The notes under the pieces are model-generated. The model searched no databases, was not told the origin of the DNA, and saw nothing but the letters and a program-made list of their open reading frames with translations. Shown here piece by piece: positions 411 through 18,920 of a stretch of DNA of 40,000 nucleotides. Within the stretch, counting starts at the first letter, position 1. The number at the start of each line of letters is the position of its first letter. Where the stretch lies: NCBI RefSeq assembly GCF_044789845.1, contig NZ_CP085252.1:2795932-2835931 (forward strand), written 5' to 3'. Source of the DNA: Jeotgalibacillus malaysiensis (GTDB taxonomy: Bacteria > Bacillota > Bacilli > Bacillales > Jeotgalibacillaceae). The position numbers were made by a program, and so were the translations under genes.

Positions 411-437
411 GAAACACCCTTTCTTTATCAATGTTAT

Positions 438-487: not shown

Positions 488-501
488 ATGATACGTATTA
501 A

Positions 502-1542: not shown

Positions 1543-1596
1543 TTTATGACACTCCCTTTGTTAAAATTATTTAAATCCGGTTGTACCGAATTGAAA

Positions 1597-2565: not shown

Positions 2566-2578
2566 TTTTTCACTCCTT

Positions 2579-3562
2579 TCAAGCCTCTACTTCGATTTTC
2601 GAAAGCTTGGCCTGTGAACGTCTATATTGAATCTGGTCATAGGAGACAGCGACCAAAATGATCAAACCTGTAAAAACTTTCTGCCAGAAAGTATCAATTC
2701 TTGCCAGAATTAATCCGTTTTGTACAATGCCCAGTAACAGCACACCAAGTACTGTTCCAAATATCGTTCCTCTACCACCCATGATGTTCGCACCGCCAAG
2801 TACGACTGCTGCGATAACCATCAGTTCGAGACCAAGCATACCGTTTGGATCGACCGCTCTTGTATAAGCAGTCTGTGCAATCGCTGCAATTCCTGCCAGG
2901 AAGCCCATATAGGCAAAAACGAAGATTTGTACTTTCCCATAGTTAATTCCAACTCTGACAGCTGATTCCTGATTCCCTCCAATTGCCAATACTTCCCGAC
3001 CAATCAACGTGTATTTGAGGATATACCATGTAATGAAAGCCACTGCGATAAAGAGCATGGTAACCACTGATACACCTGCTATTTCGAAAGAAGAAAATGT
3101 CATAAATACCTGTGGAAAGCTTGTGCTGTTCATGTACTGACCGTTTGTAAAGTAAAGGACAAGCCCATTAATAATGCTAAGCATTCCCAATGTAACAACA
3201 ATTGCAGGAATCTTAATTTTGGCTACCAGGACCCCATTCAGGCTTCCGAGCGCAATTCCGATGATTGGACCTACTAGAAAAAGGACCAATACAGATAAAA
3301 TACTATCCGGTAATATCACCATTAAGTGCCCAAGCAGTACGCATACTGCACCTGTTATCGCTGCTACCGATACATCAATTCCGCCTGTTATAATGATCAG
3401 CGTCATTCCAACTGCCAAAATACCAAGTACCGCATTCCCTTTGACAATATCGAGAAGGTTATCTGATGAAAGAAATACCGGATTCATGATCGTGATCATC
3501 ACACTGAGTAAAAGGATAATCACCACAATACTGATTTCTTTTGATTTTAAAACTCCACTCAT
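2579..3562 (-). CDS. Sugar ABC transporter permease (RbsC/branched-chain type)
   Basis: 327-aa polytopic ORF, paralogous in pattern to 1597..2565. It overlaps the upstream ATPase gene by 4 nt. Confidence 0.9.
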   Translation of the reverse strand: MSGVLKSKEISIVVIILLLSVMITIMNPVFLSSDNLLDIVKGNAVLGILAVGMTLIIITGGIDVSVAAITGAVCVLLGHLMVILPDSILSVLVLFLVGPIIGIALGSLNGVLVAKIKIPAIVVTLGMLSIINGLVLYFTNGQYMNSTSFPQVFMTFSSFEIAGVSVVTMLFIAVAFITWYILKYTLIGREVLAIGGNQESAVRVGINYGKVQIFVFAYMGFLAGIAAIAQTAYTRAVDPNGMLGLELMVIAAVVLGGANIMGGRGTIFGTVLGVLLLGIVQNGLILARIDTFWQKVFTGLIILVAVSYDQIQYRRSQAKLSKIEVEA

Positions 3563-5094
3563 GCATGGACCTCCTTTCTTTCCGGTTCAGTATTTTTTTC
3601 ACCAAACAGCGCGTAATTAAGGATGTTCTCCTGAGTTGCTTCTTCAATATTCATTTCTCCCGCGACTCTGCCGTGACGCATAATCAAAATCCGGTCACTA
3701 ACTGCCAATACTTCAGGAAGCTCTGAAGAAATGACGATGACACCCATTCCTTCTTGTGCCAAATTTCTCAGCAGTTTATGAATCTCTGATTTCGCCCCGA
3801 TATCAATACCATTTGTAGGCTCATCAATGATTAAAAGTTCAGGGTCTGTTGCGAGCCACTTGCCGATGACAACCTTTTGCTGGTTGCCTCCTGACAGGTC
3901 ACCTGCTGCTCTTTCCGGTAACGCCGGCCTCACATCAAGTGATTTCACATATTGATCAGCCAGTTTTCTTTCTGCTTTTCTATTAATTAATTTCATTTTC
4001 GATAACATATTTTTTAAGGATGAAAGAGATATATTGTTAATAATCGACTGGTTTAATACAAGTCCCTGCGTTTTTCTGCTTTCAGGAATGTAAGCAATAC
4101 CATGATTTACTGCATGTTCCGGAGATTTCACAGTCAATTTTTTACCATTCAGTTCCATCTGACCTTCATCCGGCCTATGTACGCCGAAGATTGCCTGAGC
4201 AAGCTCAGTCCGTCCTGATCCAACCAGTCCAGTAATCCCTAATACTTCACCCTTTTTAAGTTCGAACGATATATCTTTAAAATTGCCCTGTTTGCTCAAA
4301 CCCTCAACTTTAAAAATGGTTTTACCGGCAATGACTTTATCCTGGTTTTTTTCGTAAAGTACCTGTCTGCCGACCATCAAGTTAATCAGTTTATCCTCAT
4401 TAAGGTCTTCCTTGTCATAAGTACCAATGAACTTGCCGTCTCTTAGTACTGTAAATCGATCTGACACCTTGAATAGTTCTTTTAATTTATGACTGACGAA
4501 AATAATCGATATCCCTCTGGATTTTAACTTTTCTATAACGGAGTACAGTTTTTCTACCTCTCCTGCTGATAGAGAGGAGGTCGGCTCATCCATCACAATC
4601 AGTCTGGCATCAAATGCAAGAGCTCGGGCAATCTCGATCATTTGTTGTTGAGCAATACTCAGCTTTTCAACAGCTATATGAAGATCCACCTCAAAATCAA
4701 GCTCTTTTAACGCCTCACTTGCTACCTGATCCATCTTCCGCCAATTGATTTTTGTCCATGGCTTTCGACCACTGTCCTGACCGAAGTAAATGTTTTCAGC
4801 TACTGTCAGGTTCGGAAACAAACTAAGATCCTGATAAATAATTGAAATGCCTTTTTGAGTAGCATCGATCGGCTTTACAATACTTGCTTCTTCTCCCTCA
4901 AAATAAAATTCAGCTCCGGGATCAGGCTTATAGATGCCGGCAAGGATTTTAATTAATGTTGATTTACCAGCCCCATTCTCGCCAATTAAAGCGTGGACTT
5001 CACCTTTTTCTACTGTCAGGCTGACATCATCTAATGCCTTTACACCAGGGAATGTCTTGCTGATATGGTTCATTCTTAGTCTTTCAGATGTCAT
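3559..5094 (-). CDS. Sugar ABC transporter ATP-binding protein with duplicated ABC domains (RbsA/MglA type)
   Basis: 511 aa. It has Walker A GENGAGKST, signature LSIAQQQ and Walker B LIVMDEPTS in the first domain. The second domain is degenerate (GLVGSGRTE, LSGGNQQK, LLIIDEPT). Confidence 0.93.
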   Translation of the reverse strand: MTSERLRMNHISKTFPGVKALDDVSLTVEKGEVHALIGENGAGKSTLIKILAGIYKPDPGAEFYFEGEEASIVKPIDATQKGISIIYQDLSLFPNLTVAENIYFGQDSGRKPWTKINWRKMDQVASEALKELDFEVDLHIAVEKLSIAQQQMIEIARALAFDARLIVMDEPTSSLSAGEVEKLYSVIEKLKSRGISIIFVSHKLKELFKVSDRFTVLRDGKFIGTYDKEDLNEDKLINLMVGRQVLYEKNQDKVIAGKTIFKVEGLSKQGNFKDISFELKKGEVLGITGLVGSGRTELAQAIFGVHRPDEGQMELNGKKLTVKSPEHAVNHGIAYIPESRKTQGLVLNQSIINNISLSSLKNMLSKMKLINRKAERKLADQYVKSLDVRPALPERAAGDLSGGNQQKVVIGKWLATDPELLIIDEPTNGIDIGAKSEIHKLLRNLAQEGMGVIVISSELPEVLAVSDRILIMRHGRVAGEMNIEEATQENILNYALFGEKNTEPERKEVHA

Positions 5095-6030
5095 CTAATC
5101 ACCCTTTCCAATAAACGAATGTTGAAATTGTGCAACTTCTGCTTCTGTCGGAAGACCCGTTTGTGCACCTTTTTTTGTGACCTTTAATGCCGCAACAATC
5201 GATGCATACCTCGCAGCATCTATCAGCGTTTCCCCATCTGCGATTGCACATGCAAGTGCACCGGCAAAAGAGTCACCTGCTCCGACTGTATCTACCGCTT
5301 TCACACGGATAGGATGAATGAATGTTGTGTGACCGTCCTCATATACGACTGCCCCTCTGCTTCCAAGCTTGATAATACTGTTCTTGATTTGATGATACTG
5401 ATGAAACCACTTAGCTGCTTCTACAGCTGATTTTTGATCAGTTACTTTAATTCCTGTAATTTCGTATGCTTCCTGTTCATTTGGTGTAATGAGGTCTGCG
5501 TATTGAAATACCTCATCAACTACCCCGTCTGACGGTGCAGGATCAAGCAGAACAAACATATTTTGTTTACGGGCCGATTTCATCGCTTCAATCACAGTCT
5601 CAGAAGCGATTTCCATCTGCACAAGACAAACCTTAGTGTTTGTTAGCGTTTTCATTTTTTCCTGTACTTCTTCCGGCTGCAGATCTTCGTTTGCACCCTT
5701 AATGACCAGCATTGTATTTTCAGCTTCAGAATCAAGTGTGACAATGACACAGCCTGTTGGATAAAGATTTGACTGTTTGACAGTTGTCACATCTACGCCA
5801 GTTTCTTTTAGAGAACCGAGCAGCTGTTCAGCAAACAGGTCTTTTCCGACAGCTCCAATCAGCTTCACGCTTTTTCCAAGCTTTGCACAGGCAGCTGCCT
5901 GGTTAGCACCTTTCCCACCTGATGAGAGAATGAGATCATTTCCAAAAGCAGTTTCTCCCTGCTTTGGATATCGGTCAGAAGTCGTTACAATATCCATATT
6001 GATACTTCCTACGACTACAATCTCTGTCAT
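5095..6030 (-). CDS. rbsK: Ribokinase-family (PfkB) sugar kinase
   Basis: 311 aa. The N-terminus VVGSINMDIV...SSGGKGANQA and the C-terminal DTVGAGDSFAGAL motif are the two PfkB/ribokinase signatures. Its stop directly abuts the ATPase start. Confidence 0.85.
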   Translation of the reverse strand: MTEIVVVGSINMDIVTTSDRYPKQGETAFGNDLILSSGGKGANQAAACAKLGKSVKLIGAVGKDLFAEQLLGSLKETGVDVTTVKQSNLYPTGCVIVTLDSEAENTMLVIKGANEDLQPEEVQEKMKTLTNTKVCLVQMEIASETVIEAMKSARKQNMFVLLDPAPSDGVVDEVFQYADLITPNEQEAYEITGIKVTDQKSAVEAAKWFHQYHQIKNSIIKLGSRGAVVYEDGHTTFIHPIRVKAVDTVGAGDSFAGALACAIADGETLIDAARYASIVAALKVTKKGAQTGLPTEAEVAQFQHSFIGKGD

Positions 6031-6707
6031 GCTGATCCCTCTTTCAAGCCATCAATGAAAACGGATAGCTGCTGCATTGCTTCTTCCCTGCTGATATTGC
6101 TTTTAAATAAACTACTTGTTCCACAGACGAGCATATCTGCCCCATTTTCTAAAACCCCTGGAATGGTGTCATAGCCAATGTTCCCATCTACCTGAATTTG
6201 AATTTGATAACCTTCCTTTTGGACCAGTTCTGCAATCTGTTTAATCTTTCTATACATCATTGGAATAAACTTTTGTCCTGCAAATCCCGGATTAACAGTC
6301 ATAATTGTGATGTAATCTACTACGTCAAGCACATATTCAATCTGATCAATTGGTGTAGATGGATTAAGAGCGACACCTGCTTTTAAACCGCTCGATCTGA
6401 TCAGTTGAAGTGTTTTTTGTAAGTGCGGATCAGCTTCAGCATGAATGGAGATCATGTCAGCCCCGGCGCTTTTAAATAATTCAATATACCTTCCAGGGTC
6501 TTGAACCATTAGATGAATATCGAACGGTTTATCAGTAAGTTTTCGTATTTGGTGAATCACATCTGGTCCAAGCGTAAAGTTCGGAACAAAATGCCCATCC
6601 ATAATATCCAGGTGAAAATAGTCTACCCCTGCCTTATCCAGTGAGATGACCTCTTCTTTTAACCTGGACATATCTGCACACATAAGTGAAGGACCGATCG
6701 CTGTCAT
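6027..6707 (-). CDS. Ribulose-phosphate 3-epimerase family protein (Rpe/AlsE-like)
   Basis: 226 aa. PSLMCAD...DYFHLDIMDGHFVPN...DIHLMV...VNPGFAGQKF are the Rpe-family metal and catalytic motifs. It is the first gene of the operon and overlaps the kinase gene by 4 nt. Confidence 0.85.
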   Translation of the reverse strand: MTAIGPSLMCADMSRLKEEVISLDKAGVDYFHLDIMDGHFVPNFTLGPDVIHQIRKLTDKPFDIHLMVQDPGRYIELFKSAGADMISIHAEADPHLQKTLQLIRSSGLKAGVALNPSTPIDQIEYVLDVVDYITIMTVNPGFAGQKFIPMMYRKIKQIAELVQKEGYQIQIQVDGNIGYDTIPGVLENGADMLVCGTSSLFKSNISREEAMQQLSVFIDGLKEGSA

Positions 6708-6810
6708 AGCTTTACCTCCTGTTGTCTTCTTTGTAGGTCTTATTGTAATGTAAGCGGTTTCTAAATTGGAGTAGACAACTTTCGTATGTAGGGGGATGGT
6801 TGTCGGAAAA

Positions 6811-6846
6811 TAAAAAAAATAAAAAAACGGCTATAAATAAGCCGTT
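6811..6846 (-). terminator. Rho-independent terminator after the response-regulator gene (readable on both strands)
   Basis: Stem AACGGCT / AGCCGTT (6826..6846) with a 7-nt loop. It is followed on the minus strand by a long T run (the complement of the A run 6811..6827) and begins 3 nt after the stop at 6849. Confidence 0.6.
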
Positions 6847-6848
6847 TT

Positions 6849-8402
6849 TCAGGAGCTTCTGTAGGCAGAAGGAAGTTTTCCAATATGCTGTTTAAACAGT
6901 CTGCTAAAATACTTTGTATCGGTGTAACCTGCCTCTTCTGCTACTTCATATATCTTTAGATCTGTTGTTTTTAATAATTCTTTTGCCAGCTGCATTCTCT
7001 CTTTTGTTATATAGTCTAGAACTGTAACACCTGTTTCACTTTTGAATAACTCACAAAAATAAGTAGGGTTCATATGAATATAAGCGGCAATCTGTTTAAT
7101 TGTTATACTTTCTGCGAGATTTGACTGAATCCATTCTTTTGCGAGTATTATAGGATCCGTTTCCTGCTTAAAACGTTCTTTACGGTCTTTGGATAGCTGC
7201 GTAATCCACCTTTCCAACTCAGTCTTCAGTTCATCAAAAGAGAATACGTCATCAGACATACCAACCACTGCATCAATTCCTGAAATAGATGACACGCCTT
7301 CTTCAACCATAACTTCATTGATCAGACGAATAGACAAATATTGAACTGCTTCTTTTATCAATTGAGGTGATTTGGTTTTCTTCAACTCTTCAAGGTAGCG
7401 CTCAAGTGGTGACCTGACTTCTGTTATATCTATTTTAAAACCGCGAACGATCTCATCAGATAATTGATAAATACGATTTGATACACTTTGTCCCTCTTTC
7501 TCCATCATTTCCTTCCATACTTCAGGATAAATGATGTAATTCCCTTCATTGAACATTCTCAGCTGAAGAGCAGCTAGAAGCTCTTCTTTCTCAAAAGGGA
7601 TGACAGATAAGTCACTGAAAGACAGACTGATAGCGGCTGATATTGTATATCCTTCAGTCTCACGAACTCTATGCTGCAGCTTTCTAAGAAAACTGATTAC
7701 ATGGTTTTTTTCCTCACTTTTTACAAGTAACCAGGTATAATAATCCTGATAGCGCCATATCCAATATGAATGCTCAGGCAGCTGTTCTTTAGCCCCATTT
7801 AAAATCCGCTCAAATAGTTTGTTCAAATGATCTTTAGGAAGCTTCAGATCCGGACTAATGCTGATCAGTTGATACACAGCCTCTTCAAACTCATCATTGA
7901 TATTAGCACTCTCATCATATTCTTTAAGATAAAATAGATCTTTTAAAAGATTAAGACGCTTCTGATGAAGAGAATCCATTTGAAGACTTTTCCGATTTTT
8001 CTCTTCTGACCGAAGTATGATAATTTGCTCTTCAAGTTTTGTCAGCTGCTCTTTAAATGCAGCCCTGTCAATCGGCTTTAAAATATAATCAACTGCCCCT
8101 GATCGAATAGCATTTTGCACATAAGAAAATTCATCAAATCCTGATATAATTACCGGCATGAATTCTCTTTGATCTTCTTTCAATTTTGATACAAGTGTGA
8201 GTCCATTCATCACCGGCATTTGAACATCAGTAAAGAGCACATCAAATGATACCCCGTTATTTGTAATGTCATCATAAGCAGCCTGACCATCATCATATAC
8301 TGATACAATTTCCCAGTTATCTGTATTCTTCAGAATCAGCCTTTCAATACCCCTTCTGATTCTTATTTCATCATCGACTACAATTGCTTTTATTGTCTTC
8401 AT
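6849..8402 (-). CDS. Response regulator with C-terminal AraC-type HTH (YesN-like)
   Basis: 517 aa. The receiver domain is visible (VDDE...DVLFTDVQMPVMNG...KP). The C-terminal AraC/XylS helix-turn-helix is visible (IAAYIHMNPTYFCELFK...AGYTDTKYFSRLFK). Confidence 0.9.
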   Translation of the reverse strand: MKTIKAIVVDDEIRIRRGIERLILKNTDNWEIVSVYDDGQAAYDDITNNGVSFDVLFTDVQMPVMNGLTLVSKLKEDQREFMPVIISGFDEFSYVQNAIRSGAVDYILKPIDRAAFKEQLTKLEEQIIILRSEEKNRKSLQMDSLHQKRLNLLKDLFYLKEYDESANINDEFEEAVYQLISISPDLKLPKDHLNKLFERILNGAKEQLPEHSYWIWRYQDYYTWLLVKSEEKNHVISFLRKLQHRVRETEGYTISAAISLSFSDLSVIPFEKEELLAALQLRMFNEGNYIIYPEVWKEMMEKEGQSVSNRIYQLSDEIVRGFKIDITEVRSPLERYLEELKKTKSPQLIKEAVQYLSIRLINEVMVEEGVSSISGIDAVVGMSDDVFSFDELKTELERWITQLSKDRKERFKQETDPIILAKEWIQSNLAESITIKQIAAYIHMNPTYFCELFKSETGVTVLDYITKERMQLAKELLKTTDLKIYEVAEEAGYTDTKYFSRLFKQHIGKLPSAYRSS

Positions 8403-8434
8403 GAATCATCCAGCCCCTTCTCAGCTCATACAGA

Positions 8435-10213
8435 TTACTCCACTTTCGGAAAACGGATTTCTATTTCTGTTCCTTTTCCTTTTGTACTATTAAAGATGAG
8501 AGAATACCCCTCCCCAAAAATCATAGCAAGTCGTGCATTTACATTCACAATGCCAAAACCTGAATCTCTTCCGGCAAGCGGATTGTCTTTTAGTTCTTCT
8601 TCAATTTTCAACTTCACCTCATCATCCATTCCCGGACCATTATCCCGTATGGTAAAAACTACTTCCCGCTTTTTCAACACTTCTTCTCTTACTTCTATAT
8701 CAATTAATAGAGATTTACTTTTTTCGAGTCCATGTTTAATCGCGTTTTCCACGATTGGCTGCAAAATAAATTTCGGAACTAGATAGTCTTCAATGTGAGA
8801 GCTTTTTGTAATATTAAACGTTAGTCTGTCTATAAATCTGAAGTGCTGAAGTGTTAAGTAATCTTCAATATGCTGAAGTTCCTCCTGTAACTTGACCAGG
8901 GAACTTTTATTACTGAGTGAAAATCTCAGCATTCTTCCGAGCAGGGTAAGCATTGTAACAACTTCTTCTGTCTCTTCTTCTTCAACAGCCATGCTGATTG
9001 TTTCAAGGGTGTTATACATAAAATGAGGATTAATCTGTGACTGCAGTGCATAAAGCTCTGCGGTTTTTTGCTTCAGTTCTATATCGTATTTTTCGTTGAT
9101 CAGTTCTCTCAGTTCAACCAGCATCTGTTGAAAGCTTGCAGATAATACAGCAAGCTCTTTTGTCTGATACTCTGGCACTTCTACATTTAGGTCTTTACGT
9201 TTTACACTGCCCATAATCTTCCCGAGCTCATTGATCGGTTTTGTAAATGAAATAGACGAAGCGATTGTAATCATAGTCGTGGCCACAGCAAATATAACAA
9301 AAATCAGGATCGTCACGTTTTTAATTCCCTCAGCTGATGCTGTTAAAGATCTCACAGGCAAATAATGGATCAGATCCATAGAGAATAACTCTGAACGGTC
9401 TATACTTACAAGATTTGAATCGCTTCCTTCAAAGGTTCTGAAGCTCCCATTTGTAATTGGGTAATCATTTATTTCAAGGTCTGTTTGACCGATCTGACTG
9501 TGATCAGAGTGATAGACAATCTGGCCTGACTCATTTACAATTTTTACGGTTGCGCCTTGCTCTTCCATTAACTGCCCAATGTACTTTTCAAAAAACAAAC
9601 TATTGACTGCAATATAAATAACCCCTAAATCCCGTCTATTATCAAAATCCTTAATGCTTTTCATGATCAAGAAATATTGAGGGTCACCTTCAAAAGAGAG
9701 TGGTAATTGATCAGATAATAACAGCTGAGCATCTCCAATCTGGTTAGCCTGACTTCTATAAGGTAGGCTTCCATCCTGAAATCCAAAATTCTGAAAAGGG
9801 AGGTTGGTTTTTGAAAACACACGATTTTTTGAAACGATAAATGTTCCGAGTATATCCGGTTGGGACAGATAAGTCCGCTCGAGATAATTCTCAACTATAT
9901 ATTGATCCTGCCGCTGCTCTGACTGAAGTGTTGGACTGGATGAGCGAAGTACACTCATAACATCACCTGAATTGTAGATTAACTCAGGAAGATCAGTAAG
10001 CGTCTGTATTTCACTCTCAATATTATCGTTCACCTGACTAACAACCTGCGGAACATACTTTCCCACTTCAAGCTGAATAGACTGGCTATATTGATAATAA
10101 GCAAGTAATCCAAGGCCAGCCATAGGTAATATCGTTAAAATCGTATAAGTAATAATGAGCTTTTTAACGAGAGAGAGACTTCTGAAAGCCTCAATCAGCT
10201 TTTTAAAAATCAT
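8435..10213 (-). CDS. Sensor histidine kinase (YesM/LytS-like, HAMP plus His_kinase plus HATPase)
   Basis: Features seen: two TM segments around an extracytoplasmic domain, a HAMP-like linker, QINPHFMYNTL (the H-box of the YesM/LytS class), and ATPase N and G boxes (ENAIKHG, DNGPGM, GFGIVN). I trimmed the start to the ATG at 10213 (MIFKKLIEAF...). The longer track ORF (to 10312) would overlap the upstream gene by 110 nt. Confidence 0.88.
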   Translation of the reverse strand: MIFKKLIEAFRSLSLVKKLIITYTILTILPMAGLGLLAYYQYSQSIQLEVGKYVPQVVSQVNDNIESEIQTLTDLPELIYNSGDVMSVLRSSSPTLQSEQRQDQYIVENYLERTYLSQPDILGTFIVSKNRVFSKTNLPFQNFGFQDGSLPYRSQANQIGDAQLLLSDQLPLSFEGDPQYFLIMKSIKDFDNRRDLGVIYIAVNSLFFEKYIGQLMEEQGATVKIVNESGQIVYHSDHSQIGQTDLEINDYPITNGSFRTFEGSDSNLVSIDRSELFSMDLIHYLPVRSLTASAEGIKNVTILIFVIFAVATTMITIASSISFTKPINELGKIMGSVKRKDLNVEVPEYQTKELAVLSASFQQMLVELRELINEKYDIELKQKTAELYALQSQINPHFMYNTLETISMAVEEEETEEVVTMLTLLGRMLRFSLSNKSSLVKLQEELQHIEDYLTLQHFRFIDRLTFNITKSSHIEDYLVPKFILQPIVENAIKHGLEKSKSLLIDIEVREEVLKKREVVFTIRDNGPGMDDEVKLKIEEELKDNPLAGRDSGFGIVNVNARLAMIFGEGYSLIFNSTKGKGTEIEIRFPKVE

Positions 10214-11237
10214 ATTGATCCACGTTTTCCTTTGTAAAATCAATCGGCTGTCCCATAATAACAATCCGATCTTTAAATTCAATTCTGCCGATATCCGGAA
10301 TGCTTTGACCATCAGATGGCATTTCGCCCCGGATTAATTGTTCAGCAAGTACAACTGTTAAGTAACCAAGCTTTTGAGGACTCCACAAAGTCATTGTATG
10401 TGCGATATCCTTTTTTAGGTATTCACGCATCAAATTTGGAGTCGACGTACCAACTACAGCAATTTCCCCTTCTTTACCATAATCAAGTAACGCTTCACTA
10501 ATGGCCGGTGGATTAACGGTTGAGATGCCAATGATGCCTTCCACGTCGCGATAATCCTGTAAAATATCAACTGTTTTCTGATAGGCAGTCTGAAAATCTT
10601 CATTGGCATATTTAAATGTCCGCAGACTCATATTCGGGTAGAACTCCTCCTGATGAATCGTGAACCACTTGATCCACTCATTCAGGTTGGCAGCATCCTG
10701 AGAACCACTGATAATCGCATAGTCACCTTTTTCTTCCATCTGTTCAGCTAAAAGATCCATAATATGACGCCCCATCCACTCAGGGTCTACCATATTAACA
10801 AAAAAACTTCTATATTGCGGATCAGTATCTGAGTCCCATGTAATTACCTGAATCCCATTATTTATCGCCTCAAGCATCACCTGACCAAGACGGCCGGGGT
10901 CGTTTGCTGCAATCGCGATTGCATCGACATCCATCTCAATCATTTCTCTGAATATCTCAATCTGCTTTTCTGCACTTGCAACTGAGGGTCCTTCGTAAAT
11001 CAAATTCACACCAAGTGCTTCAGCCGCTTCAATCGCACCTTTTTCCGCTGCATCAAAATATGGGATGCCTTCAAGCTTAGGAATCACTGCAATCGTATAA
11101 TCATTATTCTGAGGCTGATTAACTGACTGCACTGTCGTTTCCTCCTGATAAATCACCTGATAAGAAGGACGGCTGCATGCAGTCACCAAACATAGGATCA
11201 TTGCTACAAGTAAGATCACAAACCATTGACGCTGCAT
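10203..11237 (-). CDS. Sugar-binding-protein paralogue, probable extracytoplasmic co-sensor of the adjacent two-component system
   Basis: Lipobox LVTAC. IAVIPKLEGIPYFDAAEKGA and the C-terminus IMGQPIDFTKENVDQYDF parallel the transporter SBP (IMGPPSDFTSENAGDFDF). I chose the start at ATG 11237 (MQRQWFVILL) because GAGGGAGG lies 6 nt upstream. The gene overlaps the kinase gene start by 11 nt. Confidence 0.85.
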   Translation of the reverse strand: MQRQWFVILLVAMILCLVTACSRPSYQVIYQEETTVQSVNQPQNNDYTIAVIPKLEGIPYFDAAEKGAIEAAEALGVNLIYEGPSVASAEKQIEIFREMIEMDVDAIAIAANDPGRLGQVMLEAINNGIQVITWDSDTDPQYRSFFVNMVDPEWMGRHIMDLLAEQMEEKGDYAIISGSQDAANLNEWIKWFTIHQEEFYPNMSLRTFKYANEDFQTAYQKTVDILQDYRDVEGIIGISTVNPPAISEALLDYGKEGEIAVVGTSTPNLMREYLKKDIAHTMTLWSPQKLGYLTVVLAEQLIRGEMPSDGQSIPDIGRIEFKDRIVIMGQPIDFTKENVDQYDF

Positions 11238-11243
11238 AACTTG

Positions 11244-13019
11244 CCTCCCTCTTAAAATGTTGTTATACAAACGGTTTGAGCCGTTTATGGGGTGTCAAAA
11301 AAATTTTTTTGACACGATGATTAACAGTAATTTAAAATGCTGTTTTGATTTTACAGACATGAGATACGCTTCGCGGCTACTACTGTTATGAAATGGTAGT
11401 AGTGGGGGTAAATATGCGATGCACAATGGATCTCCGCAATACTTATGATGACGTACCCTCCCATGTCTCCGGGCATCTGTGTGCCAACATTCCTTCGTTC
11501 GGTCTAATCATAAGGCGGAGGCCGGCTATGCTCCTTTAGGGACTCATAGTCGAATGGAATGAATGATGCCAGCTTCTCCGTGTCATCCTTTGTTAGGCTG
11601 AGTCAGAATGGTTCATTACTCTACAGAAACCTTCAAGACTGGGATATCCTTCATCATAATCGCCTCATCGAACACTCTTTGTTTTGTCGCAATCCCATGT
11701 AAAACTCTTAAGAGTTTCCCGCAAGGTACAACGATTGATTGCTTTTTACGCAATGGATTCTCAGGTCGTGTTGTGTAGTAGTCATGTAACGTTTTAAATG
11801 CTTGATTGTGCCTAATCATGGGCATCATGACGCGGAATAAAAGGGCACGAAGCTTGCTTCTTCCACGTTTTGAAATCCGTTTTTGACCTTTATGCTGACC
11901 GGAAGAATTCTCTTTCAGTGTTAACCCCGCAAGTTTTATTAGTTGGCGTGGGTCCTGGTAGTGAGAAAAGCTGCCGATCTCAGCCATTAATTCAGCGATC
12001 GTGGCATCACCTAAACCATCTACACTCGCAAGCCACTCATACTCAACTGAGGACTGTGCCAGCTCTGTCAGAGAGGCAGTGACAGCTTCTATTTCAATCT
12101 GAAGCTGCCGGAAACGGCGAACCAGCGTGGCAATTTCCATACGGGCCATCGCTAAGCCTTCCGTCATCCCAATTGAGTCATTAGCTACCTCTATCAAACG
12201 AGCTCCTTTTGGCTTTTGAGGAGAAGATAATCCGTCTACCTTTCGGTAAAGGGTTAGTAGTTCCTCGAGACCTTTGCCCTGAACATCTTGTGGCAAAGGG
12301 GTCTGTTCAAGCGCTGCGAGCGCCATCTTCCCGAACGACGGGAAAACCGTTCTGAATTCAGGGAAATAACGATCAAGCCAGCGAATCATCATGTTCTTGA
12401 CTGACCCAAGTTCTTCAGTCAGACGTCCTTTTAGTGTGGCACCAGTGCGAAGCTCTGCCTCGGCATCCCTCAGAATCCGCGGATAACTGAAACGTCCATC
12501 TTTCAATAGCCTCGCAATCACCAATGCATCCTTGCGATCGTGTTTGGTTGGCAGATTGTCATCAAGCTCTTTAGAGCGCTTGACGTGCATCGGATTTGTC
12601 ATCGCGAGGTTAATCCCTCTGTCAGCGAGAAAGTAAGCGAGATTCAGCCAATAATGACCTGTAGGTTCAATACCAGCCAGCACCTCCGTTTTATCAAACT
12701 CTCTCATCGCTTCTAGAACGTTGTGATAAAACCCTTCAAAGCCCTCACGTGACTGGGAGATGGCGAATGGCTTCTTCAACATTCGACCACGATCATCAAC
12801 AAAGCAGGCATAGTGCGTGCGTTTTGCGATGTCCATTCCAATAACGAGTGTATTTTCGGTGACTTGATTAATTTTGTGATTTTGTATAAAATCCATGGTG
12901 GAGTCCTCCTTGGTAACAAATTAGGGGTCAATTCTTAGTGCATTGACACCCCATATCCTACCAAGAGGGCTCTTTTTTGTTCAAGACCCCGAAAACTCTC
13001 CTAACAGGAATGCTCCTTT
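11244..13019 (-). mobile_element. IS110-family (IS1111-like) insertion sequence, copy 1
   Basis: 1776-bp block shared with 24830..26605 in inverted orientation. In the regions I compared by eye I found 8 substitutions and otherwise identical sequence. It contains a DEDD/Tnp20-type transposase gene, a 123-nt leader and a 372-nt non-coding tail. A 13-bp subterminal inverted repeat TATGGGGTGTCAA is present and there are no terminal IRs. Confidence 0.85.
11616..12896 (-). CDS. IS110-family transposase/recombinase (N-terminal RuvC-like DEDD domain, C-terminal Tnp domain)
   Basis: 426 aa. It shows VIGMDIAKRTHYA (first Asp), GIEPTGHYW and KHDRKDA in the N-terminal domain, and SVDGLGDATIAELMAEIG...ISKRGRSKLR in the C-terminal domain. 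This is the typical IS110 architecture. Confidence 0.92.
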   Translation of the reverse strand: MDFIQNHKINQVTENTLVIGMDIAKRTHYACFVDDRGRMLKKPFAISQSREGFEGFYHNVLEAMREFDKTEVLAGIEPTGHYWLNLAYFLADRGINLAMTNPMHVKRSKELDDNLPTKHDRKDALVIARLLKDGRFSYPRILRDAEAELRTGATLKGRLTEELGSVKNMMIRWLDRYFPEFRTVFPSFGKMALAALEQTPLPQDVQGKGLEELLTLYRKVDGLSSPQKPKGARLIEVANDSIGMTEGLAMARMEIATLVRRFRQLQIEIEAVTASLTELAQSSVEYEWLASVDGLGDATIAELMAEIGSFSHYQDPRQLIKLAGLTLKENSSGQHKGQKRISKRGRSKLRALLFRVMMPMIRHNQAFKTLHDYYTTRPENPLRKKQSIVVPCGKLLRVLHGIATKQRVFDEAIMMKDIPVLKVSVE

Positions 13020-13025
13020 TTAAAG

Positions 13026-13637
13026 TTACAGTTGACTCAGGTGCATCATGCTATTCCATTGAATGACTTCAGTCTTTTCATTAATTTCCAGGATCGAAAT
13101 ACCTGCATTATGCATCTTAATTGATCGGTATGAGGAGCGGGGGAGGCCCAGCCATTCAGTTGCCAGCAAACGGTTGAACGTATTATGTGCTACAACCAGT
13201 ATGACATGATCTTCATGATGCTTTTTAAGATCTTCAAAAAAATGAAGACCTCTTTTCACAACATCAAACCCCTTCTCCCCGGATTCTCCTGCATGTACTG
13301 TGTCAGGGTCAACTAGCCACTCATCCCATCTTAACTTATCTGTATGTTCAATTTCAGATCGAGTAAGTCCTTCCCACCCTCCAAAATTAATCTCAGAAAG
13401 CCGCTCATCTGTGACTATGTTCTTCACATTTCCTGAAATAACCTCTGCCGTTTTAACTGCTCTTTGAAGCGGAGAAGCATATACTTTATCAAATGAAACA
13501 ACTGATAATATCTCCCTGGCAGCTTCAGTCTGTTTCAATCCTGTATCGGATAGTTCAATATCAGTCAGTCCGCAATATTTGTTACCTTCAGCATTCCATA
13601 CAGTTTCCCCATGCCTTAATAGATAGACAAGTGTCAT
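13026..13637 (-). CDS. Histidine phosphatase family protein (phosphoglycerate-mutase-like sugar phosphatase)
   Basis: 203 aa. It has the LLRHGETVWN catalytic RHG motif, a later VVAHNTF histidine motif, and SPLQRA. It overlaps the upstream kinase gene by 4 nt. Confidence 0.85.
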   Translation of the reverse strand: MTLVYLLRHGETVWNAEGNKYCGLTDIELSDTGLKQTEAAREILSVVSFDKVYASPLQRAVKTAEVISGNVKNIVTDERLSEINFGGWEGLTRSEIEHTDKLRWDEWLVDPDTVHAGESGEKGFDVVKRGLHFFEDLKKHHEDHVILVVAHNTFNRLLATEWLGLPRSSYRSIKMHNAGISILEINEKTEVIQWNSMMHLSQL

Positions 13638-15073
13638 AGCTTGTACCCTCTCTCACCCATAATTTCAACAAAATTCTGATAATATTCTTCAAATTTCCTA
13701 CCTGTTGCTATGTCAGGCTCAATGATCGTTTCTTTTAGAAGCATATATTTACCAGCCTCCTGTAGCGAATTAAATCGTGTACGGGAAGCGGCGATAATAG
13801 CTACTCCAACTGCTCCGTCAGTATATTTCATTTTAATAACTGGTTTATTCAGTATATTGCTCCTGATCTTGAGCCAGGCAAAACTATTACTACCACCGCC
13901 GGCTGTATATACCTCATTGATCTGTTCCCCACTCAGATCAGCAATCAATTCAAATGACATTCTTTCTAAATAACCCACACCTTCAAGTCTCGACGTGTAA
14001 AGAGCTTCTCTAGATAGATCTGGATGATCAAACCCTGTTGCTTCAGCATGTTGAAAAGGAAATCTTTCTCCTTTGCCGTTAAGTGGATAAGAATAGGTTC
14101 CTGTCGGGAATAATGCTTCTGCTGACTGGTTCAAATCATTCATGTCTTCGATATACTGTCTAATCCAGATCGCACCCGTGTTACTGGCCCCTCCCGGCAT
14201 CCAAAAACCATCAGGATGCTTGTGGCTGTACACCCGTCCTTCAGGATCAGCAGGCGGTTTGTTAGTAACACCTTTGATTACCATAGTAGTGCCAATCGTT
14301 GTATTCCACATCCCCGGAGAAATCGCACCAGCAGCAAATTGAGAAGCGCACCCATCCGTAAGCCCGGCTGTTACCTTTAACTGTTCAGGCAGACCGGTTT
14401 TTTCAGCAACACTTCTAGAAACTCGGCCAATGATATCCCCGGGAAACGTTACATCTGGTAATAATGAAAAGTCTATATCTAACTCACTGATATACACCGG
14501 CCATTGAACCGATTCCAGGTCATAACCGGTTTTTAATGCATTTGTATAATCGGTGACGCCCCATCTTCCTGTAAGACACCCAATTACATAATCAGCAGCA
14601 TGAGCCCAATATTTTATCCGTCCTGCTTTATCAGGAAACTGATCATGAAACCATTTAATTTTTGGCAAACCATAAGAGGCGTTGAATTTAGTAGAATGTC
14701 CAGACCTTTTGGAAGCTTCATTACACATGACTGCTGCCGACTCAGCTCTTCGGTCATGATACATAATTGCAGGATGTAACGGAATTCCTGATCCATCTAA
14801 AGGAATCACTGTGCCAGATGTAGAGGAAACAGATAATGCCACAAGATTATTTAATTTTCCTTTAAACTTTAACTCATCAGTAAGCCGCTTCAAAAGGCTA
14901 AAAGTATTAAGTATCCAAAGGTCAGGATGCTGTTCCTTCTTAGGCCCCTCATCCAGATCCAGGGTAAAAGCATGTTTTTCAACAGCAATAACATTACCTG
15001 TTTCATCGACCGCTACACACCTGATACCTTGAGTGCCAATATCAACCCCTATAAAAAGAGCATGATTATTCAT
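13634..15073 (-). CDS. FGGY-family carbohydrate kinase
   Basis: FIGVDIGTQGIR N-terminal motif and the C-terminal GGGSNSFAWLKIRSNIL motif. I set the start to ATG 15073 (MNNHALF) because AGGAG lies 8 nt upstream. The track start at 15091 would overlap the aldolase gene. Confidence 0.85.
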   Translation of the reverse strand: MNNHALFIGVDIGTQGIRCVAVDETGNVIAVEKHAFTLDLDEGPKKEQHPDLWILNTFSLLKRLTDELKFKGKLNNLVALSVSSTSGTVIPLDGSGIPLHPAIMYHDRRAESAAVMCNEASKRSGHSTKFNASYGLPKIKWFHDQFPDKAGRIKYWAHAADYVIGCLTGRWGVTDYTNALKTGYDLESVQWPVYISELDIDFSLLPDVTFPGDIIGRVSRSVAEKTGLPEQLKVTAGLTDGCASQFAAGAISPGMWNTTIGTTMVIKGVTNKPPADPEGRVYSHKHPDGFWMPGGASNTGAIWIRQYIEDMNDLNQSAEALFPTGTYSYPLNGKGERFPFQHAEATGFDHPDLSREALYTSRLEGVGYLERMSFELIADLSGEQINEVYTAGGGSNSFAWLKIRSNILNKPVIKMKYTDGAVGVAIIAASRTRFNSLQEAGKYMLLKETIIEPDIATGRKFEEYYQNFVEIMGERGYKL

Positions 15074-15077
15074 CTCA

Positions 15078-15749
15078 TTAACTCCTATCAAGCAGCTTTT
15101 GACGATATTTTTCTGCCTCCAAATTTAAAATCGCCTGCTTTTCATCATAAGTTAGCACTCTTGGCTGACCAAAAGCAGAGCTGATCCAATAAACCCGCGC
15201 ACCATCTTCAATAATTTCAGTACGATAATAAGCCTGCTTCATATTAGTCCCAACAGTAATTAGTCCGTGATTACGTAAACATAAAGCCTGATAAGACGGA
15301 TCTTTTAACACACCAATGACCGCAAATGCCAATTCATCCGAACACGGAATCACATAATCAATCAATGGCACAGTATCACCTACAATCGCCACATAATCCG
15401 GAAACATCATTGGCACTTCTTCAAGACCGGAGGAAATCATCCCAATCGTAACAGGTGGGTGTGTATGAACAATTGCCTCAACATCCTCACGCTGACGATA
15501 AATTTCTAAATGCATCCTCACCTCAGAAGACGGCTGAAGCATCTCATGCAAATTTTCTCCTGATTCAATGTTTACAGGGACCCACGATTCATCTGACACA
15601 TCATCAAGAGCAAATCCACTAGGCGAAATCCACATCACATCCCCATCCCGCATACTCGTATTCCCACCAGGACCAACCGCCAGCTTATTCTCTACCACCT
15701 TACGACTATACTCACTCAACGGAACCCTTATCTCGTCACGAATCTTCAA
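15078..15749 (-). CDS. Class II aldolase/adducin-family protein (L-ribulose-5-P 4-epimerase or L-fuculose-P aldolase-like)
   Basis: 223 aa. GPGGNTS, PSSEVRMHLEIY and IVHTHPP are the class II aldolase/epimerase metal-binding motifs. Confidence 0.85.
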   Translation of the reverse strand: MKIRDEIRVPLSEYSRKVVENKLAVGPGGNTSMRDGDVMWISPSGFALDDVSDESWVPVNIESGENLHEMLQPSSEVRMHLEIYRQREDVEAIVHTHPPVTIGMISSGLEEVPMMFPDYVAIVGDTVPLIDYVIPCSDELAFAVIGVLKDPSYQALCLRNHGLITVGTNMKQAYYRTEIIEDGARVYWISSAFGQPRVLTYDEKQAILNLEAEKYRQKLLDRS

Positions 15750-15866
15750 AATTCCTCACTCCATTCTATTATGTAAGCGCATACAATAATTTTAGGTGAA
15801 ATTCAAGCAATCTAATAGGTGACGATGTTTGGGTGTAGGGGGAGGATTTTCGGGAGAGTGGGGGGT

Positions 15867-15930
15867 GAAGCCCGGGGTCAGACCCCCGCCTTCGGAAAAA
15901 CGAAGGGCAGGGTCAGACCCCGCCCTTCGC
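15867..15930. repeat. REP doublet (two tandem units, core GGTCAGACC), 10 nt downstream of the RAYT gene
   Basis: GAAGCCCGGGGTCAGACCCCCGCCTTC (15867..15893) and CGAAGGGCAGGGTCAGACCCCGCCCTTCGC (15901..15930). Each is an imperfect palindrome. Confidence 0.9.
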
Positions 15931-15940
15931 TCTATCTCTA

Positions 15941-16714
15941 TCACACCTTCCAAATAATCGTCTTAGGTATTCCCAATACTCTCGCCAGCTGGGTACTGGA
16001 AAATTTCCTGGTGTTTTTCAGTTGTTTAATGATTGGGTTTCGTTTAACGGGCGGGAGTTTTTTGATGTGGGTAAGGTCTGTGTTTGTGCAGATGGATTGG
16101 ATGATTTCGACTGCTTGGGCATCTGTATATTTGGGGATTTTGGAAGGAGGTTTTTCGGGAAGGTCATAAGCAACTTCTGTATATTCGATGAACCGACGCG
16201 TGGACTGGCTTGGGTCGTCTGAGTAATATTTCAGCACGCCTGCAGTATCTGTAAGCCCCGGACAATGACTCGCTAATCCGTAAAAACACCTGCAGCTGCT
16301 CCATTGGTAATCAGAAGGATTTTCAACAAGTGAGCTTCTGACAGGATTTTGATGTGTGTAGCGTATGACAGTATGCAGGTACGAAATATTTTCAACCGGA
16401 CTGCTGTAAAAGCGCCCTTCGTAAATTGTCCCGCTCCCCTCATATTTCTGATTCATATACATCGAATAAGTGCCGTTGATCCGCTGCATCACCTTCGAAA
16501 TACTCAGTTCTATTGTTCTGATCACCAAATGAATATGATTATCCATCAGGCACCAGGAAAACACTTGAAAGCCTGATTCATCTTTAAGCTTCTTTAAACG
16601 GTTCAAAAAAAATCGCCTGTCCGCATCCTCATAAAAAATCAACTGCTTGTTAATACCTTTAATTGTAATGTGATAGATTCCTGATTTGCTTACTTCGCGG
16701 GGTTTTCTTGGCAC
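15941..16714 (-). CDS. REP-associated tyrosine transposase (RAYT; IS200/IS605-like Y1 HUH enzyme) with C-terminal HTH-like extension
   Basis: 257 aa. It has the HUH motif in MDNHIHLVIRT, the catalytic-Tyr region VIRYTHQNPV, no tnpB partner, and REP units on both sides. Confidence 0.8.
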   Translation of the reverse strand: MPRKPREVSKSGIYHITIKGINKQLIFYEDADRRFFLNRLKKLKDESGFQVFSWCLMDNHIHLVIRTIELSISKVMQRINGTYSMYMNQKYEGSGTIYEGRFYSSPVENISYLHTVIRYTHQNPVRSSLVENPSDYQWSSCRCFYGLASHCPGLTDTAGVLKYYSDDPSQSTRRFIEYTEVAYDLPEKPPSKIPKYTDAQAVEIIQSICTNTDLTHIKKLPPVKRNPIIKQLKNTRKFSSTQLARVLGIPKTIIWKV

Positions 16715-16740
16715 GGGGTGTGCTCCTTTCGGGGGTGGGT

Positions 16741-16832
16741 TTTAGCGAAGGGTGGGGTGGTTTAGCGAAGGATGGGGTCAGACCCCCGCCTTCGCTCCGA
16801 AGGCAAGGGTCTGACCCCATCCATCCTTCGCT
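16741..16832. repeat. REP half-copy plus inverted REP doublet upstream of the RAYT gene
   Basis: Three elements: TTTAGCGAAGGGTGGGG half-unit (16741..16758); GCGAAGGATGGGGTCAGACCCCCGCCTTCGC (16765..16795); CGAAGGCAAGGGTCTGACCCCATCCATCCTTCGC (16798..16832). The two full units are mutually inverted. Confidence 0.9.
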
Positions 16833-17692
16833 TACTTTGCAATTTTGTTGATTGAATCGATGACGGGTATGTTGAGGCTGCGGGCCATGATTCGTGCGCC
16901 TTTGTCGTGTGATACGAAGACGAGTGGTGTGCCGAGTTGGATTTCGTGCAGGACGCCTGCGACGATTCTTTCGTCTGGTGTGTTGTAGCTGTTGTGATTT
17001 TTAGGGCGACGCGTCCACTGCAGTCGGTTGCTTTTCTGGTAGTATTCGAGGACGTCGAATCCCATTTGTGCGTTTCTTCTGACGGCTGGTGATTCATTTT
17101 TCTTCAGGCCTTCAAGTTCTCCGAAAACTGTTGGGTGCAGGAAGATATGAGCCTTGGTTTCCTGTAACACATTTAGCAGAATCGGTTGAAAATGCATGAT
17201 AAAGTTTGTATCGAGGGCAAGGTGATATCCCTGATTTATGTACGTCTGAATATTTTCCGTGTAGATCGAATTCGTTTCAAGTGTACGCTTTTCGTAAAAG
17301 CTGGTTCTGGCTTTCTTTTCAAACCTTTTAGCTGCCGTACTGCTCTGATTCGCCTGCACAAAAAATAAGACAATAAATCCGATAATGGCAATGCCACCAA
17401 TACCTGTGTTGTCATTCATTGATGCATATACAATCAAATACGGTGCACCTGCCCCAAGTAAAATGAGATACATCCATGACCATACGTAGGTCCCCGCAAA
17501 CGCCAGTCCGCTTCCCGGAAACAATAGTGATAATACATAAGCCAGTGCAGAAGATCTCTTGAATGTTTTTAACTTCCGATTCATAAATGTAAACCCAATG
17601 ATCAGTACCATTGTAAACAATGCGATAGTTCCGCAAAGCAGCATAAACATCTCCAGCCGCTCCTTTTGCTCAAGCATTCTAATCAAAAACAA
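16832..17692 (-). CDS. Membrane-anchored PIN-domain protein (putative ribonuclease)
   Basis: 286 aa. About four N-terminal hydrophobic helices are followed by a PIN-like pattern of acidic residues (ALDTNFIMH, VFGELEGLK, TPDERIV, VSHDKGARIMARSLNIPV). The start may instead be at the internal MFMLLCG. Confidence 0.65.
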   Translation of the reverse strand: MFLIRMLEQKERLEMFMLLCGTIALFTMVLIIGFTFMNRKLKTFKRSSALAYVLSLLFPGSGLAFAGTYVWSWMYLILLGAGAPYLIVYASMNDNTGIGGIAIIGFIVLFFVQANQSSTAAKRFEKKARTSFYEKRTLETNSIYTENIQTYINQGYHLALDTNFIMHFQPILLNVLQETKAHIFLHPTVFGELEGLKKNESPAVRRNAQMGFDVLEYYQKSNRLQWTRRPKNHNSYNTPDERIVAGVLHEIQLGTPLVFVSHDKGARIMARSLNIPVIDSINKIAK

Positions 17693-17815
17693 TGTTGAAG
17701 CCTAACTCAATACACTCATCCCCCATCAATAACAATATGGACTAATTTTACAACAAATGAGTCTATAGTTGTAGATAGGAGAACGATATTTTTGATTCTT
17801 TTTATTCATGTGATA

Positions 17816-17891
17816 GCGAAGAGCGGGGTCAGACCCTGCACTTCGTTGTTGAAAGCTAGAGCGAAGGCAAGGGTCTGACCCCCCACACTTC
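17816..17891. repeat. REP doublet (inverted units)
   Basis: GCGAAGAGCGGGGTCAGACCCTGCACTTCG (17816..17845) and GCGAAGGCAAGGGTCTGACCCCCCACACTTC (17861..17891). Confidence 0.9.
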
Positions 17892-17895
17892 ACAA

Positions 17896-18786: not shown

Positions 18787-18818
18787 CTAATCCCCTCCTA
18801 AAAGCAAGATTGAGATAA

Positions 18819-18920
18819 CGAAGTACAGGGTCTGACCCCGCCCTTCGCTGATTCATTCCTACTCTCAACCACAATAAATGACAGCAGGAGCGAAGGCAAG
18901 GGTCTGACCCCAGCCTTCAC
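18819..18920. repeat. REP doublet (tandem units separated by 41 nt)
   Basis: CGAAGTACAGGGTCTGACCCCGCCCTTCGC (18819..18848) and GCGAAGGCAAGGGTCTGACCCCAGCCTTCAC (18890..18920). Confidence 0.9.

Follow-up and report, generated by a model that had tools for sequence, protein, structure and literature searches.

A TnpA-Y1 subclass 2.1-type gene bracketed by REP hairpins in Jeotgalibacillus malaysiensis

Systems in which a family of repetitive extragenic palindromic (REP) sequences accompanies a REP-associated tyrosine transposase (RAYT) are known in detail almost exclusively from Proteobacteria, where the REPs are GTAG-tagged. For one branch of the same superfamily of enzymes, TnpA-Y1 subclass 2.1, we know of no substrate or role. 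Here we describe a gene of this type at positions 15941–16714 (minus strand) of a 40-kb stretch of the chromosome of the Bacillales species Jeotgalibacillus malaysiensis (contig NZ_CP085252.1; the whole stretch is referred to below as the window), together with the family of ~31-nt palindromes that surrounds it. We consider it likely, with a probability of roughly 70%, that the locus is a REPtron-like unit; namely, a resident gene for a Y1 enzyme of the HUH (histidine–hydrophobic residue–histidine) type that is flanked by cognate hairpin repeats, the repeat having spread to nearby intergenic DNA.

The TnpA-Y1 superfamily has been split into subclasses (Quentin, Siguier, Chandler & Fichant 2018, PMC6006769). 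Subclass 2.1 has the longest proteins, with C-terminal Bac_DnaA_C, HTH_23 or HTH_28 domains and a Ser that is conserved downstream of the catalytic Tyr, and it takes in 20 of the 26 terminal inverted repeat-associated tyrosine transposases (TIRYTs) of Di Nocera et al. 2013 (PMC6006769). The inverted repeats that flank TIRYT genes fit GGGG[AT][CG]A[CG] (Di Nocera et al. 2013, PMC3733652). According to the authors of the classification, automatic and manual searches found no REP-like sequences near subclass 2.1 genes (PMC6006769). At the locus described here, the gene has REP doublets on both sides and further copies of the repeat are scattered through nearby intergenic DNA, and two relatives that bear a DnaA_C domain (loci L014 and L037) are likewise REP-flanked. 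The presence of REPs contradicts a generalisation about subclass 2.1, not a feature that defines it. The annotation of the gene (NCBI) and the REPtron and TIRtron arrangements as such are already known; what is new is a subclass 2.1 enzyme that is clearly accompanied by a REP family, which runs counter to that generalisation, and the finding that the terminal inverted repeats (TIRs) of its family are structured hairpins.

The Y1 enzyme and its closest relatives

The gene starts with a GTG codon, with a putative ribosome-binding site 8 nt upstream that was read from the sequence (AAAGGAG, 16723–16729, minus strand). It encodes a protein of 257 amino acids with 100% identity to P0001 of J. malaysiensis, and NCBI already annotates this exact protein as 'REP-associated tyrosine transposase'. 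The original prediction, which was made from the DNA sequence without database searches, had recognised a Y1/HUH enzyme from an HIH motif and from a tyrosine in RYTHQNPV. Both residues of the motif, H60 and H62 (H60-I61-H62, codons at 16529–16537, minus strand), and the tyrosine, Y119 (16358–16360, minus strand), are invariant in an alignment of 59 family members, as are Q122 and N123 and, downstream of the tyrosine, S140, Q242, R245 and G248. The match to Pfam Y1_Tnp is significant (55.6 bits); the NCBIfam model NF047646 (REP_Tyr_transpos) is passed narrowly (82.8 bits, cut-off 80), and the NCBIfam IS200 model NF033573 is failed (22.7 bits, cut-off 55). With its HUH motif and tyrosine intact and conserved, the enzyme is probably catalytically active.

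In fold, the protein resembles Escherichia coli TnpA-REP (also RAYT or YafM; structure 4ER8), the reference enzyme for REPtrons, in which an HUH/Tyr gene is flanked by the genome's own palindrome doublets, as here (Groups 2 and 3 of Bertels et al. 2017). A profile of the family aligns with 4ER8 (E = 5 × 10−7) over the HUH motif (HIH/HMH) and YIxxNPVK, Y119 falling on Y115 of 4ER8 in YIYINPVK. An AlphaFold (AF2) model of the window protein (pLDDT 92.3, pTM 0.87) has 4ER8, TnpA-REP bound to a REP hairpin, as its closest solved structure (E 1.4 × 10−7; TM 0.77, target-normalised), ahead of every IS200, IS608 and ISDra2 TnpA. Fold and catalytic motif (YIxxNPV) are thus common to the two enzymes, but the window protein is ~90 residues longer, with a helix-turn-helix (HTH) domain, and the sequences are 22% identical (32 bits). 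None of the residues through which E. coli TnpA-REP contacts GTAG (W94, Q95, E100, H101 and R104; PMC6006769) is kept: where NIWQPRFWEHAIRN of 4ER8 aligns with TIYEGRFYSSPVEN of the window protein, the five positions read Y, E, S, S and E. The foot of the repeat, which reads GCGA and not GT[AG]G (unit consensus nGnnnnAGCGAAGGnCAGGGTCTGACCCCnGCCTTCGCTC), is consistent with this loss. Both features separate the locus from canonical GTAG-type REPtrons (subclasses 2.2, 2.4, 2.5, 2.7 and 2.8).

Comparison with published sequences (TIRYTs and RAYTs from Additional file 5 of Di Nocera et al.) places the protein closer to TIRYTs; BLASTP scores were 80–114 bits against eight of these and 27–49 bits against five canonical RAYTs. 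Like TIRYTs, it is a long Y1 protein with MPRxxR, CLMxNHxHL, GxLWEGRF-S and WSS signatures and a C-terminal HTH extension of the HTH_23 type, and its gene has flanks (GGGGTCAG/GGGGTCTG) that fit GGGG[AT][CG]A[CG]. It differs from them in that the flanking repeat is a palindromic hairpin of high local density that occurs as singlets and as REPIN-like doublets, in that the 'TIRs' of the family as a whole form hairpins in which the stems covary and the loop is conserved, and in that the host belongs to the Bacilli, a group absent from the text of PMC3733652 and PMC6006769. Self-complementary, repeated and clustered TIR families have been noted before, at S. maltophilia ORF1152 (PMC3733652). On these sequence comparisons, the enzyme is of the TIRYT, or TnpA-Y1 subclass 2.1, type and sits in a REPtron-like genomic arrangement. 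The identification as a RAYT in the original prediction therefore holds for a RAYT-like Y1 enzyme that passes NF047646, has 4ER8 as its top fold match and is flanked by REPs on both sides; it does not hold for a RAYT of the canonical GTAG type. None of the findings that the prediction had named as refuting it was made, with the repeat counted over the window.

The prediction had also set the gene apart from IS200/IS605 insertion sequences (ISs), and we agree. The TnpA proteins of IS608 and ISDra2 have the same HUH/Y1 fold, and presumably a similar recognition of hairpins in single-stranded DNA (ssDNA) and phosphotyrosine chemistry. Here, however, one hairpin forms both ends, as inverted copies, where an IS200/IS605 element has two different subterminal hairpins on the same strand; the gene appears to be of low copy number, the IS200 model is failed, and there is no tnpB among the neighbours, which encode a PIN_4 protein and a class II aldolase.

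Beyond the catalytic domain, residues ~198–257 (15944–16123, minus strand) form a helical HTH-like domain, as judged from the AF2 helices (198–208, 214–217, 222–234, 240–247 and 251–256, all at pLDDT >90) and from conservation across the family, three of the invariant residues (Q242, R245 and G248) lying within it. Query coverage is 96–100% in the 120 homologues listed, which are mostly from Bacillota, so the domain is present in all of these. Weak HTH_23 matches occur in 23 of the 59 family members, and the window protein itself matches only HTH_11 (E 0.061). Modelled alone, the domain reaches pLDDT 87, and a Foldseek search of PDB structures with it returned nothing with E < 1, the weak matches being small HTH regulators. 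Searching with a profile of the domain gave 2,581 cluster representatives, and in every one the match is C-terminal; the short matches are fragments of the same family, because they carry its own linker motifs. One protein of 367 amino acids, P0216, has the domain twice, in tandem. We also considered DnaA domain IV and found no support for it in the window protein, which does not match Bac_DnaA_C; a profile search of PDB sequences gave only spurious matches to protein A repeats. Bac_DnaA_C is above the cut-off in two distant relatives, the Clostridia proteins of L014 and L037. The extension is a family-specific HTH-like module. It had been described as an addition to the RAYT plan; it is real and conserved, but it is the described defining feature of subclass 2.1 rather than an add-on.

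Hairpins at the gene, its orthologues and its family

REP counts were made for the window. Allowing at most 1 mismatch, GGGGTCWGACCCC has 17 matches compared with 0.00 expected (100 shuffles), and the core GGTC[AT]GACC has 18 matches, of which all 18 are intergenic. The repeat is a ~31-nt palindrome with an invariant apex, GGGTCNGACCC; the consensus of the aligned units is AGCGAAGGnCAGGGTCTGACCCCnGCCTTCGCTC, in which GGGTC-N-GACCC is invariant. Units mostly adjoin the 3′ ends of genes. Directly past the stop codon of the Y1 gene, and 10 nt from it at the nearest end, there is a doublet (units 15865–15895 and 15900–15930) that is predicted to fold as ssDNA with −21.9 kcal/mol (z −3.5) and has its apex 0–50 nt past the stop. 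On the other side, a half-unit (16745–16760) and an inverted doublet (16765–16795 and 16797–16831) span 31–117 nt upstream of the start codon. In this doublet GGATGGGGTCAGACCC is the exact complement of GGGTCTGACCCCATCC, and the region 16745–16831 is predicted to form a single long hairpin (−33.7 kcal/mol, z −7.5), with an apex ~70 nt before the start. Both flanking arrangements had been predicted, and both apices stand where they do in the rest of the family (see below).

The window alone is weak evidence for an association between gene and repeat, because about one-third of its intergenic regions carry a unit. If the palindromes served the host as structural elements (as terminators, to stabilise mRNA or to bind proteins) and happened to be dense in this region, the gene would have units on both flanks by chance in about 1 in 10 cases, and a terminator scan does pick up four units. 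Such chance adjacency nevertheless seems to us very improbable. Terminator-like sites are not clearly enriched in the window (23 compared with 16.3 ± 4.1 in shuffles), and we rejected intrinsic termination as the identity of the units, as only 4 of the 23 sites overlap units and most units have no T tract. Above all, every orthologue that we looked at stands between copies of a distinct palindrome of its own. The four other Jeotgalibacillus orthologues are 44–58% identical to the window protein. J. salarius P0002 is bracketed by GTAGACCCGGGTCTGTCCCGGGTCTAC, a GTAG-headed palindrome (GTAG...CTAC; GTAGACCCGGGTCTGTCCC-type) that occurs within its 20-kb locus only at the gene, and J. haloalkalitolerans P0004 by GCGAAGGCAGGGACAGACCCTGCCTTCGC, with five further copies in 20 kb. 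J. terrae P0006 and J. aurantiacus P0008 have a longer GGGGACGGAG...CTCCGTCCCC hairpin, with 12 and 19 further copies, respectively, of the GGGGACRG motif in their 20-kb loci; J. aurantiacus, Schinkia and J. terrae have 12–19 copies of the terminal hairpin in 20 kb. Enzyme and repeat change together between species, and this comparison of sequences is strong evidence for the association of gene and repeat.

The position and orientation of the motif relative to gene ends also argue against chance. We analysed the flanks of family genes at 87 loci (80 from metagenomes and 7 from genomes), and an unbiased comparison of 8-mers between the 200-nt gene flanks and the rest of each locus singled out AAGGGGACGGTTCT. 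The motif GGGGACGG occurs 108 times in flanks compared with 6.2 expected, spread over 51 loci. It lies forward and 50–100 nt upstream of the start in 46 of 73 upstream matches, and reverse-complemented and 0–50 nt past the stop in 42 of 63 downstream matches; the wrong orientation is rare. With GGGGTCTG ~70 nt upstream and its complement ~25 nt downstream, the window gene has the geometry of the family.

Each family end is a hairpin with a conserved loop of 13 or 15 nt (GGGGACGGTTCTC, GGGGACGGGGTTG or GGGGACAGGTACC; GGGGACRG), on stems that differ between loci while complementarity is kept. For 100 distinct ends, the mean stem is 5.4 bp with an end's own arms and 3.4 bp with arms swapped between loci (maximum of 3.8 bp in 200 permutations), and the 50 ends that reach 6 bp or more have 38 distinct stems. 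Among ungapped ends with a 13-nt loop, 82% of cells are paired compared with 65% when shuffled, slid registers pair in 35–46%, and double-sided stem changes number 70 compared with 22 in shuffles (0 of 500 shuffles reach the observed value); the unselected arm-swap test is the safer of the two, because this subset was picked by best stem. The REP of the window follows the same plan, a variable stem with a conserved 13-nt centre, but here the centre is itself palindromic. Among the large loop classes, class follows protein similarity (0 of 500 permutations), which could be explained by shared ancestry. For the GGGGTCWGACCCC class, we rejected the idea that apex type tracks RAYT phylogeny: the window protein is ~35–45% identical to the other carriers, so the apex probably arose more than once. 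The nearest relatives of the window protein use GGGTCTGTCCC, one base off GGGGTCWGACCCC.

Genes bracketed by inverted terminal repeats at fixed distances are reminiscent of ISs, and the whole unit, hairpins and gene, might be an active autonomous mobile element (a 'TIRtron' acting as an IS) of which the scattered REPs are derivatives resembling miniature inverted-repeat transposable elements. The original prediction had spoken of a single HUH gene. The exact protein is indeed a cluster of one sequence on one contig (copies per contig are not reported), but the same 3.59-Mb chromosome holds one relative, the 57%-identical paralogue P0003, and the genome has no other. P0003 shares 78% identity with the J. 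salarius gene, and J. malaysiensis therefore has two RAYT lineages. Two divergent copies in one genome, the different genomic contexts of J. salarius P0002 and the window gene, and the many truncated family fragments in metagenomes would all suit a mobile element. We regard this explanation as rather unlikely. An ordinary IS would show many identical copies with IS200-like ends, and here there is one contig and one relative at 57% identity; the flanks are REP doublets rather than one pair of distinct ends, and the failure with the IS200 family model points the same way. Furthermore, the window gene, P0004, P0006, P0008 and the Schinkia homologue have neighbours in common (ComK, a sigma factor, an NTP-transferase and SLH proteins), which suggests that the lineage of the window gene has long held its chromosomal position and has been inherited vertically.

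The same behaviour, an apparently single-copy gene in a conserved neighbourhood, would also suit a domesticated protein that processes ssDNA or regulates, with REPs as sites for a host function (fork processing or regulation through the HTH domain) and with their spread being historical or due to something else. An HTH domain that is specific to the family and has invariant residues fits such a role, as does the tendency of REPs to adjoin gene 3′ ends, and non-transposition roles have been proposed for subclass 2.1 (PMC6006769). Even so, we judge domestication unlikely: the catalytic HUH motif and tyrosine are strictly conserved, and the species-specific REP families at each orthologue imply that enzyme and repeat continue to co-evolve.

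A REPtron-like unit with a resident enzyme is thus the explanation that we favour, and its presumed mechanism is modelled on the chemistry of the IS608 and ISDra2 TnpA proteins and of E. coli TnpA-REP. By analogy, the enzyme would bind the REP hairpin in ssDNA, for example on the lagging-strand template. H60 and H62 would hold a metal ion, and Y119 would cut the DNA to form a 5′-phosphotyrosine link before the strands are rejoined. REP singlets and doublets would in this way be moved or copied in trans, while the gene itself stays put. Conservation points to the apex or loop, rather than a GTAG foot, as the probable specificity element, and to the C-terminal HTH domain as a possible second contact with DNA.

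Several observations weigh against this reading. Binding, cleavage and mobility are all attributed to the system by analogy, and the NF047646 score exceeds its cut-off by just 2.8 bits. Single units are imperfect palindromes, in which columns 14–17 and 29–32 pair in only 3–9 of 18 units, and covariation among the 18 units of the window is not above that in shuffles, because the units are too alike and contain an unpaired internal stretch. All REPs of the window fall within 15.8–39.8 kb, where there are two IS elements as well; they may thus mark a local hot spot. The GGGGTCWGACCCC apex stands beside RAYTs that are only ~35–45% identical, and REP type does not simply follow protein phylogeny. 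Finally, J. salarius has ~9 window-type REP units and no RAYT or Y1 gene in the sampled 8-kb stretches; these units may be relics of a lost RAYT lineage.

These J. salarius units came from a scan with GAAGNNNNGGGTCWGACCCYNNNCTTC of species-representative genomes, a collection in which J. malaysiensis is not included; the scan also found the window-type unit in two Clostridia metagenome-assembled genomes (MAGs) and one Solirubrobacteraceae MAG. A RAYT homologue lies between or beside repeats with the GGGGTCWGACCCC apex in three of the scanned stretches (two from Clostridia and one from Solirubrobacteraceae). Across these genomes the 13-nt apex GGGGTC(A/T)GACCCC is constant and the lower stem differs, reading ATTGAAGATC, CCGAACAGAT and GTGTTAACTTA in the Clostridia MAGs and CTGAAGCAA, in 34-nt tandem arrays, in the actinobacterial MAG.

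A more general idea, which we put forward tentatively and to which we give somewhat less than even odds, is that subclass 2.1 enzymes recognise a conserved 13–15-nt loop (GGGG-W-C-N-G...) on an arbitrary stem and not a GTAG foot, and that in J. malaysiensis, as separately in some Clostridia and Solirubrobacteraceae, a self-complementary form of the loop (GGGGTCWGACCCC) evolved and gave rise by amplification to a REP/REPIN family. If this is true, subclass 2.1 would be a second, mechanistically distinct REP-generating system, and the published view of this large subclass (~15% of strains) as REP-less and without secondary structure at its ends would be overturned. J. malaysiensis is a Bacillales species that can be cultured and has a complete genome; the REPs of this locus and of its relatives are dense, naturally occurring candidate substrates for a subclass 2.1 enzyme, and recognition through the conserved apex or loop is a proposal concrete enough to be tested with oligonucleotides.

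Dispersed units and insertion sequences

Fourteen units beyond those at the gene had been predicted for the rest of the window. Fourteen further cores were found, but those at 19498 and 21077 belong to one unit that is split by an IS, so the window originally had 18 units at 10 intergenic sites. Going away from the Y1 gene, an inverted doublet (17816–17891; centres 17831 A and 17876 T) lies between the PIN_4 gene and a DUF6398 gene, and two units (18818–18920; centres 18833 and 18905) share a divergent intergenic region. The segment 19445–19504 holds one unit (centre 19460) and the left half of the split unit (apex 19492–19504), the right half of which is at 21071–21092. A variant unit with a G centre (TGAAGGCGGGGGTCGGACCCTCGCCTTCA) follows at 24790–24818, and then a doublet between the convergent Mrr_cat and ComK genes (27966–28031; fold −32.7 kcal/mol, z −7.6), an inverted doublet between convergent genes (34280–34340; centres 34295 A and 34325 T), a single unit (35812–35842; fold −16 kcal/mol, z −6.2) and two units with centres at 39760 and 39799 (39745–39814). 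In predicted ssDNA folds, units and doublets form strong hairpins of −12.7 to −33.7 kcal/mol (z −3.5 to −7.6).

Three of the eight doublets (centres 16780/16812, 17831/17876 and 34295/34325, A and then T in each) are clearly inverted, and in these, pairing between the partners is better than pairing within either unit. They resemble REPINs (Bertels & Rainey 2011, PMC3116915), which are inverted pairs of units, with 30–45 nt between centres, that form one long hairpin; the likeness is seen at 16765–16831, 17816–17891 and 34280–34340 and was read from the DNA sequence. The remaining doublets differ in being direct or ambiguous (with T at both centres, or A at both), and a description of all doublets as clean REPINs was therefore dropped. 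Unit orientation is only weakly defined, because the units are near-perfect palindromes.

The split unit has been interrupted in its apex by an IS4-family element of 1,566 bp (19505–21070, plus strand) with ~19-bp terminal inverted repeats that read ATACCCGTCAA(G/C)TTAA(G/T)AAT. Its transposase open reading frame (ORF), at 19593–20744, matches Pfam DDE_Tnp_1 and NCBIfam transpos_IS4_1 (243.7 bits). The 13-bp direct repeat GGGGTCTGACCCC that flanks the element is the duplicated REP apex, and removal of the element in silico restores an ordinary unit, CTGAAGTAC-GGGGTCTGACCCC-AGCCTTCAC. The IS4 element is not part of the REP system and accounts for two apparent 'units'. REPs are reportedly targets of ISs in Proteobacteria, and at this locus a REP has been the insertion target of an IS4-family element in a Gram-positive genome. 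An IS110-family transposase gene (24953–26233; DEDD_Tnp_IS110 and Transposase_20) starts ~135 nt after the variant unit at 24790–24818; elements of this family target REPs in other bacteria.

Units are unevenly distributed along the window. Positions 1–15800, a tightly packed block of minus-strand genes, are free of them, in spite of several intergenic gaps of 130–350 nt (6707–6849, 11270–11616 and 12896–13026). No Rfam family was matched in the window, no copies of the REP were found in a plasmid collection, and a literature search returned no paper on REPs in Jeotgalibacillus or on this repeat, a search with the repeat sequence giving only unrelated papers.

Next to the convergent doublet at 27966–28031, the ComK gene is adjacent to a small sigma-70 (ECF-like) gene (28042–29355), a pair that recurs at 18988–20507 of locus L058 and 15981–17357 of locus L059. 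In J. malaysiensis, J. aurantiacus and Schinkia it lies 5–12 kb from the Y1 gene; the two genes are divergent in the window and in L059, and co-directional in L058.

Repeats in the scanned genomes have features of their own. Five loci from the two uncultured Clostridia MAGs (L014, L015, L027, L030 and L037) contain at least three REP sub-families with the GGGGTCWGACCCC apex in common, and the two DnaA_C-bearing Y1 genes among them, although 78% identical, have different flanks (GAAGATC type in L014 and GAACAG type in L037). In the Solirubrobacteraceae MAG DASVQH01 (75% GC; L003, L016, L028, L043 and L054), head-to-tail arrays of 3–4 units with an exact period of 34 nt resemble bacterial interspersed mosaic elements, and in L043 a Y1 gene (6464–7033) is enclosed between such arrays. 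The window-type units of J. salarius (L008, L012, L029, L050, L052 and L001:527) have more degenerate arms. Its locus L001 also holds an unrelated family of ~126-nt intergenic repeats, with 3–5 copies of 62–82% identity within 20 kb (2673–2802, 8770–8895, 14404–14529 and 14594–14719).

REP units also give rise to spurious ORFs in the window (15792–15953, 16659–16820 and 17726–17893, all on the minus strand), the products of which contain the peptides GSDP, GLTP or RVRP (GGGTCTGACCC translated); such REP-derived ORFs may be miscalled as small hypothetical proteins.

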